From: Escherichia coli | GTDB taxonomy: Bacteria; Pseudomonadota; Gammaproteobacteria; Enterobacterales; Enterobacteriaceae | Reading direction: 5' to 3' (one strand) | DNA length: 64,000 nucleotides | Assembly: GCF_024700885.2 (NCBI RefSeq) | Contig: NZ_CP117016.1 | Shown: in pieces, positions 6,001-9,000 of the stretch | How the letters are laid out: each line of letters opens with the position of its first letter | Numbering within the stretch: position 1 is the stretch's first letter | Program-made: the position numbers

Positions 6001-9000
6001 ATCACTGACCTTGAAGACGAATCGCATCCTGACCGTTACAGCGCACAATATCGCGCAGAATCGCAGCCGGACGGCATCATCGGCATCGGCACATGGCGAG
6101 ACTTCATCGTCTGCTTTGGTTCATCGACGATTGAATATTTCTCCCTGACTGGTGCAACCACCGTTGGTGCCGCTTTGTATGTCGCACAGCCATCGCTGAT
6201 GGTGCAGAAAGGTATTGCCGGGACTTACTGCAAAACGCCGTTTGCTGATTCGTATGCGTTCATCAGCAATCCGGCAACGGGTGCGCCGTCTGTATACATC
6301 ATCGGCTCCGGTCAGGTATCACCAATCGCCAGCGCGAGCATTGAGAAAATCCTCCGCTCCTACACTGCTGATGAACTGGCTGATGGCGTGATGGAATCAT
6401 TGCGGTTTGATGCTCATGAATTGCTGATTATCCACCTTCCGCGCCATGTTCTTGTTTACGACGCATCTTCAAGCGCCAATGGTCCGCAATGGTGTGTGCT
6501 GAAAACAGGCTTATATGACGATGTGTACCGCGCTATCGACTTCATTTACGAAGGCAATCAGATAACGTGCGGCGATAAGCTGGAATCTGTTACCGGGAAA
6601 TTGCAATTCGATATCAGCAGCCAGTACGACAAGCAACAGGAACATCTGCTGTTTACTCCGCTGTTCAAAGCGGATAACGCAAGAGTGTTCGACCTTGAGG
6701 TTGAATCTTCAACTGGTGTTGCGCAGTACGCCGACCGCCTGTTCCTTTCTGCAACCACTGACGGCATCAATTACGGACGTGAGCAGATGATTGAGCAGAA
6801 TGAACCTTTCGTTTACGACAAACGTGTTTTGTGGAAGCGAGTCGGGCGCATCAGGAAAAATGTCGGCTTCAAATTGCGCGTTATCACGAAGTCACCTGTC
6901 ACTCTGTCTGGCTGCCAGATAAGGATTGAGTAATGGCTGATTCGAATCTCAATGAGCCGGTAATCATTCAGGCTACACGACTCGACACATCAGTCCTTCC
7001 ACGCAATATCTTCTCGCAGTCATATCTGCTGTACATTATTGCACAGGGTACTGATGTTGGTAACGTGGCAAACAAGGCCAACGAAGCAGGGAAGGGGGCT
7101 TATGATGCACAGGTGAAGAATGATGAGCAGGATGTCACCCTTGCAAACCATGAATCCAGAATTGAAGCTGCTGAAGCAACTCTCATCAATCATGAACATA
7201 GAATCGCAGAAGCGGAAATCACTCTTGCAGATCATGAAACAAGGATTACGGCTGCCGAAACAGAGCTTGCTGATCACGAGACGCGAATTGCTACCAATGA
7301 ATCTGAGTTAGCAAACCATGATGCGCGAATAACTCAGAATACAACCGATATCGACGCACTTGATACCAGGCTCACAGCGGCAGAGGGAAGTATTTCGACG
7401 CTACAAAGCACAGTTGGTGATCACTCAACAAGAATATCTGCGCTTGAGTATGCCACCACGCGCAAGAAATCAGAGGTTGTTTACTCAGGAGTATCTGTAA
7501 CCATCCCGACAGCGCCGACCAACCTTGTTAGCCTGCTGAAAACGCTCACGCCGTCATCCGGCACATTGGCACCATTCTTCGACACTGTTAACAACAAGAT
7601 GGTTGTGTTCAACGAGAACAAAACCTTGTTCTTCAAGCTGTCGATCGTCGGGACGTGGCCCAGCGGAACCGCCAACAGGTCAATGCAGCTAACCTTTTCC
7701 GGCTCTGTTCCTGACACGTTGGTCAGCAGTCGTAATGCGGCGACAACAACCGACAACATCCTGTTAGCTACGTTCTTCAGCGTGGATAAAGACGGCTTTC
7801 TTGCCACAAATGGCAGCACGTTAACCATTCAGTCGAATGGTGCGGCGTTTACTGCCACAACCATCAAAATCATTGCGGAGCAGTGATGGAAATAAAGCTC
7901 ATCGATAATCCGGTGAAGCTTGCAGAATTCCTCAACAATCCGGCAAACACGGGAAATATCGTAGACAGTGGAGATAAATACTACATCAAGCCTGATGCGG
8001 TATACCTCGGCATCTACGAAGGATTAGTGCTGGCTGGCGTTCATGAAGTGCGTAACTTCTGGCATAGCGTTGTTGAATGCCATGCGGTGTACGACCCCGG
8101 ATTCCGTGGTGAATATGCACTGCAAGGGCATCGATTATTCTGCAAATGGCTTCTCGAAAACTCACCATTCCTTAACAGCATCACTATGGTTCCTGACACC
8201 ACGAAATACGGACGGGCAATTATCCGTTTGCTTGGCGCTACCCGTGTTGGTCACCTTGATGATGCTTATACCAGCAATGGAAAGCCTGTAGGCATCACGA
8301 TTTATCAGTTACCGCGCTCAAAATACGAGGAGCTAAAGAATGTTAATTTTCCAGATTGCCAATAAGCACCTCAGCAAAACTGTTTACTGCAAAGGTAGCA
8401 GTGATGGCGGTTCAAAAGCCCAGGCACGCGCAACTGAAAAGGGCATCGAATTGCAGCGCGAAATGTGGCAGACGAACATGCAAAACCTTGCACCGTTCAC
8501 GCCACTTGCTCAGCAGTATGTATCAGAGTTGCAGAATCTTTCCTCTCTTCAGGGGCAAGGTCAGGCTCTTAACCAGTATTACAACTCTCAGCAGTACAAA
8601 GACCTTGCAGGTCAGGCGCGCTATCAGAGTCTGGCAGCAGCAGAGGCAACGGGTGGATTAGGCTCTACAGCAACCGGAAACCAGCTGGCAGCAATCGCAC
8701 CTACACTCGGTCAAAACTGGCTATCTGGACAAATGAACAACTACCAGAATCTGGCAAATATTGGTCTTGGCGCGCTTCAGGGACAGGCAAACGCCGGGCA
8801 GACATATGCCAACAACATGAGCCAGATTTCACAGCAAAGCGCAGCACTGGCGGCGGCAAACGCTAACAGACCTTCCGGCCTTCAATCTGCAATAGGCGGG
8901 GCTGCCTCTGGAGCAATTGCTGGAGCACAGCTTGGCAGCATTGTTCCCGGTATTGGTACTGGTATTGGTGCCGCTGTTGGCGGCGGTCTTGGTCTTCTTG

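Follow-up and report, generated by a model that had tools for sequence, protein, structure and literature searches.

Tail needles of P22-like phages

The tail needles closest to the one considered here are P22 gp26, Sf6 gp9 and the needle of HS1 from Escherichia coli HS. It has been established that an N-terminus of the gp26 type plugs the channel of the tail hub (Leavitt 2013, PMC3741392; PMC9728967), and cryo-EM of the Sf6 tail has revealed that the N-terminal helical hairpins of the needle form a quasi-sixfold plug in that channel (PMC9728967). The HS1 needle has an N-terminal virion-binding domain that is 98% identical to that of Sf6 and a knob that is 99% identical to the Sf6 knob, the shafts of the two being 67% identical, and its coiled coil, with 16 heptads as compared with 11 in Sf6 and P22, has a predicted length of 210 Å (Leavitt 2013, PMC3741392). 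The crystal structure of the HS1 knob is available at 1.1 Å (PDB 4K6B), and the knob residues that contact glutamate and phosphate have been listed (Leavitt 2013, PMC3741392).

The contribution of the needle tip to infection has been approached by swapping tips between phages. P22 carrying the HS1 knob, or the shaft and knob of Sf6, infects Salmonella normally (Leavitt 2013, PMC3741392), and no apparent functional change is seen in virions mutated at the glutamate site (PMC3741392). Several changes to the tip do slow the release of K+, which is used as a measure of DNA delivery (PMC3741392), and the published experiments show the needle tip to be a modulator of the rate of DNA delivery and not of host specificity (PMC3741392).

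The gene described here lies in a window of 64,000 nucleotides of E. coli DNA (contig NZ_CP117016.1), this being the whole stretch that was analysed. The best overall explanation, to which a probability of about 95% is attached, is that it codes for an allelic form of the HS1-type needle, which had already been characterised. The gene is correctly annotated and ordinary, and the length, the heptads, the knob structure and the knob-swap phenotype of needles of this type were all published in 2013.

The needle gene and its prophage setting

The open reading frame at 6933-7886 is a real gene, and its product is the tail needle of a P22-like E. coli prophage. The features referred to below are as follows.

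5515-6933, + strand: tail hub gene, homologue of P22 gp10, 472 aa (Pfam PF11134, E 5.6e-301)
6933-7886, + strand: tail needle gene, orthologue of P22 gp26 and Sf6 gp9, HS1 type, 317 aa plus stop, ATG start
6933-7139, + strand: N-terminal domain of the needle, aa 1-69, homologous to the gp26 N-terminus
7140-7349, + strand: array of five units of 14 residues (aa 70-139), in each of which a heptad L-x-[ND]-H-[ED]-x-R precedes a heptad I-x-x-[AN]-x-x-x
7350-7454, + strand: distal shaft, aa 140-174, in which the register continues for five further heptads and the last H-x-x-R-I unit, the sixth, adjoins the knob
7455-7883, + strand: Sf6/HS1-type knob, aa 175-317, TNF-like jellyroll fold
7886-8365, + strand: DUF2824 gene, directly 3' of the needle gene
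8340-9017: gene for a gp7-like ejection protein, after the DUF2824 gene
9028-10371: gene for a gp20-like ejection protein, after the gp7-like gene

The reading frame of 317 codons put forward in an earlier note on this DNA is borne out in its limits, its strand and its ATG start. It is tightly packed between its neighbours: in TAATG the TAA that ends the tail-hub gene upstream overlaps the needle's ATG, and in TGATG the needle's TGA overlaps the ATG of the next gene. The gene order, gp4-gp10-needle-DUF2824-gp7-gp20, is the standard P22-like one, and the needle gene occupies the position characteristic of its family, directly after the gp10 gene and before the genes for the ejection proteins. 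No defence system was reported by PADLOC for a PIN-domain pair and a small membrane ORF that lie close to the ejection genes.

At the DNA level the gene is 100% identical to one in the chromosome of E. coli MLI114 (NZ_CP117013.1), where RefSeq labels it as a tail needle knob protein, and matches to it occur in 938 complete E. coli genomes. The tailspike end of the P22-like prophage that carries the needle adjoins ybhB/bioA, and the tailspike itself is a protein of 861 aa with a head-binding domain, an endosialidase-type N-extension and a Peptidase_S74 chaperone domain.

The N-terminal plug domain

The earlier note had recognised a P22-gp26-like N-terminus, and the comparison with known structures agrees with this. 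Over aa 1-69 the needle shares 55 of 69 residues with P22 gp26 (80% identity), and a phmmer search of the PDB matched this part to 2POH and 3C9I at an E value of about 1e-40. The PDB search with the N-terminal part returned the P22 gp26 structures 2POH, 3C9I, 5BU5, 8EAP and others, with E values down to about 1e-46, and 8EAP, a fragment comprising the N-terminal 62 residues, was matched by the needle at 2e-27. In the PHROGs collection the protein matches phrog_1219, "tail needle protein", at 5e-57. The N-terminal plug of about 60 residues that defines the P22 gp26-like family (gp26 1-60) is present, and the length of this part is constant, at 69 aa, in most of the homologues surveyed. The 233 residues that the note gave for P22 gp26 are indeed the length of the PDB chains, so that the present needle, at 317 aa, is the longer of the two.

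The coiled-coil shaft and its repeats

A series of five 14-residue units with an HExRI signature had been noted at 7140-7349, and the units are present at exactly these positions, with the H[ED]xRI motif at aa 73, 87, 101, 115 and 129. The 14-residue periodicity is far beyond chance: the autocorrelation of the shaft at a lag of 14 gives 41 matches where 9.2 are expected (z = 11.3), a value reached in none of 5000 shuffles, the lag of 28 gives z = 9.3, and two or more H[ED]xRI motifs were found in none of 20000 shuffles of the needle protein. What did not stand was the description of the units as near-identical. Pairwise comparison of the five units gives 5-10 identical residues out of 14, with a mean of about 52%, and 17-29 identical bases out of 42 (40-69%), with a mean of about 54%. 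For third codon positions 42 nt apart the agreement is just 36%, and exact DNA matches between units are at most 11 nt long. Tandem Repeats Finder, applied to 6500-8300 with a score of 30, the lowest threshold, reported no DNA tandem repeat. The units are old, diverged repeats kept by constraint at the level of the protein. A recent expansion of the repeats in this allele was considered and rejected on the empty Tandem Repeats Finder output and the 40-69% DNA identity of the units.

The constraint that holds the units together is the coiled-coil register. Residues 70-174 make up 15 heptads, in which position a is occupied by L, I, L, I, L, I, L, I, L, I, I, L, I, V and I, that is, by leucine, isoleucine or valine in 15 of 15 cases, and position d by H, A, H, A, H, A, H, N, H, N, L, A, L, H and L. 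Position e is mostly glutamate and position g is arginine in every first heptad of a pair, and the 14-residue repeat is accordingly two alternating types of heptad, LxxHExR and IxxAExx. The glutamates at e and the arginines at g would be placed for salt bridges between helices. The register of the array was also seen to run on for five heptads beyond the range given in the earlier note, as far as aa 174, and this extension includes the sixth H-x-x-R-I unit.

An AlphaFold2 (AF2) model of the monomer, built with 17 homologues, has one uninterrupted helix from residue 42 to 176 followed by a beta-rich domain at 179-317; the mean pLDDT of ten-residue blocks is above 90 across residues 61-160, with low confidence at residues 1-41 and in parts of the knob. 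The protein has the long alpha-helical shaft of the needle family, with heptads compatible with a trimeric coiled coil, and by analogy with its relatives residues from about 42 to 176 would form the shaft as a parallel trimeric coiled coil.

The C-terminal knob

It had been suggested that the additional C-terminal domain was probably a knob as in needles of the Sf6 type, and this is what it is. The Pfam profile PF16532 (Phage_tail_NK) is matched over all of its length, 1-175 of 175 (354.4 bits, E 1.2e-106; cut-off 27 bits), and in PHROGs the best description is that of phrog_1030, "tail needle knob", at 7e-135. The HS1 knob in PDB 4K6B (E 3e-90) shares 152 of the 153 residues at 165-317, and the same stretch matches the Sf6 knob, 3RWN, at 2e-89 with two substitutions beyond those of 4K6B. 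When the model was searched with Foldseek, 4K6B and 3RWN were the first structures returned, with target-normalised TM scores of 0.78-0.79, and the matches that came after them were the distant TNF, C1q and PRD1 P5 folds. The residues that contact L-glutamate are all retained at the same positions (E181, K235, S283, D285, L290 and K312), as is the phosphate-binding triad S266-R267-N268.

Proposed function

By homology with P22 gp26, Sf6 gp9 and HS1, three needle chains would be expected to form a thin fibre, the N-terminal part of which, some 60-69 residues, probably plugs the hexameric gp10 channel and retains the packaged DNA. At the distal tip, residues from about 175 to 317 would form a TNF-like trimeric knob, which may bind three L-glutamates at the subunit interfaces as the HS1 and Sf6 literature suggests. 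The needle has five heptads more than that of Sf6 and its shaft is expected for this reason to be about 50 Å longer. On infection the needle would be the first part to meet the outer membrane, and its release would open the channel; a role in the kinetics of delivery is likewise suggested by the published work on its relatives. The earlier note had raised possible consequences of needle length and knob for envelope penetration or host range. The published data (PMC3741392) support an influence on how fast DNA is delivered, but the published knob swaps contradict one on host range.

Variation in shaft length among homologues

A protein search recovered 2495 relatives, and lengths were surveyed in the best 120 cluster representatives. 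In nearly every full-length sequence among these the knob part is 143 aa and the N part 69 aa. The number of shaft heptads in the same representatives is 8, 10, 11, 12, 13, 14, 15, 17, 18 or 19, corresponding to total lengths of 268, 282, 289, 296, 303, 310, 317, 331, 338 and 345 aa, a few sequences having a differently called start and a few off-register lengths looking like start-site differences or sequence errors. The whole span from 268 to 345 aa, which was seen in the knob-type needles of the sample, amounts to a range of roughly 115 Å.

The indels that separate these forms are heptad steps that map inside the HExRI array, and for five alleles the change relative to the 317-aa form is as follows.

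345 aa (allele L003): 84-nt tandem duplication of units 1-2, the duplicated copy unchanged
338 aa (allele L004): 84-nt unit in 3.3 copies, 98% match
303 aa: 42-nt deletion fusing units 4 and 5, with CGCGAAT common to the junction
289 aa: 84-nt deletion
268 aa (allele L005): 147-nt deletion from unit 4 to the last HSTRI unit, with TGATCAC common to the junction

At two of the deletion junctions there is thus a 7-nt microhomology between HxxRI units. Shaft length in the family is shifted in whole heptads by in-frame events of this kind, duplications of 84 nt and deletions of 42, 84 and 147 nt. The proposal that repeat number provides a way of varying needle length holds up well across the homologues, which range from 8 to 19 heptads with the indels falling inside the HExRI array. 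The earlier note had named as evidence against itself a fixed repeat count together with the lack of a knob fold; what was found is that counts vary and that the knob is present.

Origin of the repeats and significance of needle length

An important consideration is whether the array behaves as a recently expanded, recombination-prone repeat, that is, as a hypervariable, contingency-like locus whose length changes often among close isolates. There are rare alleles that speak for this, namely L003, in which the second copy of the 84 nt is unchanged, and L004, in which the 3.3 copies match at 98%, and the deletion alleles of 303, 289 and 268 aa, with 7 nt common to two of their junctions, point in the same direction, as do the ten different heptad counts among the best 120 cluster representatives. 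However, the units of the present allele are only about 54% identical in DNA, with 36% agreement at third positions, no exact match longer than 11 nt and no tandem repeat reported, and the 317-aa form with its 15 heptads is kept not only in HS1, at 96% identity, but also in homologues from Klebsiella aerogenes and Serratia marcescens at 75-77% identity. The distribution of lengths is also at odds with frequent change. One 317-aa cluster has 1430 member sequences, whereas the lengths of 268, 331, 338 and 345 aa are each represented by a single cluster of 1-3 members. Eighty IMG/VR loci were in addition collected via the tailspike head-binding domain, needle and tailspike ORFs being extracted with blastp, and two classes dominate this sample, the knob-type needles in it having a length of 282 aa at 14 loci and of 317 aa at 10; the tally also holds two 317-aa loci from E. 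coli genomes and all of the rarer lengths, which came from loci added separately, and in the same tally 40 of 41 needles with a P22 tip are 233 aa. A hypervariable locus is an unlikely description of these data. Needles of 317 aa make up a major and stable class, and the variation is not free-running.

Given that length varies in heptad steps, through recombination among the HxxRI units, it might be asked what is gained by it. It may be that the variation is adaptive and not neutral, and that it tunes the timing or manner of contact with the outer membrane, or the rate of DNA release, on hosts that differ in their surface layers, but this is offered as a speculation that is on balance unlikely. 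Another possibility is that the knob binds a receptor and in this way determines host range, in the manner of the adenovirus fibre knob or PRD1 P5, and that a longer shaft serves to present it. The fold does resemble the TNF-like receptor-binding knobs, with PRD1 P5 appearing among the Foldseek matches, and within the virion it is the knob that lies farthest out (Leavitt 2013, PMC3741392). It is, however, difficult to reconcile such a role with the normal infection of Salmonella by knob-swapped P22 (PMC3741392) or with the glutamate-site mutants, which are without apparent effect on the virion, only the kinetics of K+ release being changed (PMC3741392). Furthermore, the same type of knob is paired with tailspikes of many sizes, and those same tailspikes are also paired with tips of the P22 type, and a knob that determines host range is considered very improbable. 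Much the same low probability attaches to the idea that tailspikes and the needle shafts encoded with them are matched in size, which would time the contact of tip and membrane during digestion of the O-antigen. In the present prophage both proteins are long, the needle having 317 aa and the tailspike 861 aa, and among knob-type needles there is a weakly positive correlation (Spearman 0.27), but this is not significant (p = 0.17, 27 unique needle-tailspike pairs), and the residue count of a tailspike is only a rough stand-in for its physical length. Needles of 233, 282 and 317 aa are all found beside tailspikes of 645 aa, needles of 233 and 317 aa beside tailspikes of 799 and of 861 aa, and needles of 233 and 282 aa beside tailspikes of 981 aa, and the shortest needle, at 268 aa, accompanies a tailspike of 748 aa. 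The needle and tailspike genes appear to assort independently, and a coupling of needle and tailspike length was dropped as unsupported (Spearman 0.27, p = 0.17, n = 27).

The reading of the protein as an allele of the HS1-type needle, with an old and diverged array in its shaft, is the one retained, nothing in the results speaking against it, and the additions made here to the published account are modest. The shafts of knob-type needles form a series in whole heptads, with 8 to 19 variable heptads; single duplication and deletion junctions have been mapped inside the HxxRI array; and there is no detectable link of shaft length to tailspike size. The natural series of lengths could be used to test the effect of shaft length on virion stability or on the kinetics of DNA delivery.

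Comparison with known needles

The closest described system is the HS1 needle itself (E. coli HS, EcHS_A0316, WP_000785558.1, NC_009800.1 320115-321068), which is also 317 aa long and aligns without indels. The two proteins are identical at 305 of 317 residues (96.2%). Of the 12 substitutions, four fall within the first 69 residues and seven within the shaft, and the only one in the knob is at residue 269, alanine here and serine in HS1. The heptad count, the knob, the ligand residues and the gene neighbourhood are all the same in HS1, and the features of the HS1 subtype, 317 aa and 16 heptads as opposed to 11 in Sf6, are found here with the same difference of five heptads. The prophages themselves are not the same: that of MLI114 is integrated beside ybhB/bioA and that of HS1 beside tRNA-Thr/proA, the prophage backbones differ, and the tailspike is 861 aa here but 636 aa in HS1.

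Sf6 gp9 (282 aa, 3RWN) has the same architecture, with a homologous plug, a coiled coil and a TNF-like knob, and its knob region differs from that of the present needle at only three positions. The 282-aa class to which this length belongs has five fewer heptads, 10 compared with 15 when counted from residue 70, or 11 compared with 16 in the count of Leavitt, and its representative P0079 has two H[EDS]xRI units and one HExRL where the present needle has six HxxRI units. P22 gp26 (233 aa; 2POH, 3C9I) has the same gene position and a shaft that begins with the same LADHExRI motif, and its plug function is presumed to be common to the two proteins, but its shaft has two HExRI units and its C-terminal tip is an unrelated domain without a knob. 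More distantly, the knobs of PRD1 P5 and of the adenovirus fibre belong to the same class of jellyroll trimer fold and are likewise carried on a trimeric shaft (Foldseek; PMC3741392). The sequence identity to PRD1 P5 in the Foldseek matches is only 14-15%, and a receptor-binding role of the kind played by these knobs is improbable for the needle knob. The needle as such, with its unusual length, the additional heptads and the knob at its tip, was already described for HS1 in 2013.

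Needle length and host spread

Among the 80 IMG/VR loci (L007-L086), 40 of the 41 needles with a P22 gp26-type tip are 233 aa long, whereas the knob-type needles in the same tally come in several different lengths, and length variation in heptad steps is therefore largely confined to the knob-type branch in the sample examined. As reported in 2013 the knob type was found in Escherichia and Shigella phages only; needles of this type are now also known, at 75-77% identity, from Klebsiella aerogenes, Serratia marcescens and Salmonella enterica (homologues P0063, P0066, P0070, P0074 and P0119).

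Neighbouring virion genes

Two further genes of the prophage encode virion proteins or candidates for them:

10356-12479 (+), 707-aa protein at the P22 gp16 position
16210-18795 (+), tailspike, 861 aa

A Pfam search with the 707-aa protein gave no match, although its positional counterparts in L003-L005, the loci with 345-, 338- and 268-aa needles, do match PF26808 (Phage_P22_gp16). Because it is assigned to phrog_6704 (labelled unknown function) and weakly matches phrog_770, 'DNA transfer protein', it is a divergent variant of the ejection protein.

In the tailspike, aa 1-113 form a P22-type head-binding domain and aa 689-755 a Peptidase_S74 intramolecular chaperone domain; between them, aa 146-193 weakly match the endosialidase N-terminal extension. 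Needle and tailspike modules appear to be shuffled independently, since an identical (100%) head-binding N-terminus is paired with 233-aa P22-tip needles in the IMG/VR loci L007 and L009.

Possible accessory genes and integration site

Two minus-strand genes, which overlap by 10 nt, are flanked on one side by the ejection-protein genes and on the other by the arc/mnt region:

12831-13379 (-), gene of the pair
13370-14089 (-), gene of the pair

One member encodes a 239-aa protein (phrog_19868) with no match in Pfam or PADLOC and the other a PIN-domain protein (PF01850, E 4e-10; phrog_21691). The two look like an inserted accessory pair, possibly with a toxin-antitoxin-like or defence-related role.

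The prophage ends on the right with the tailspike and a small ORF:

18796-19083, membrane-like ORF, 95 aa, phrog_1443
about 19130-19952, right end/chromosome boundary (32544-34368 in the fetched locus L001)

This end is adjoined by ybhB and bioA, and everything else in the window is E. coli chromosomal DNA, with the bio operon and uvrB. The HS1 prophage, in contrast, adjoins tRNA-Thr/proA.
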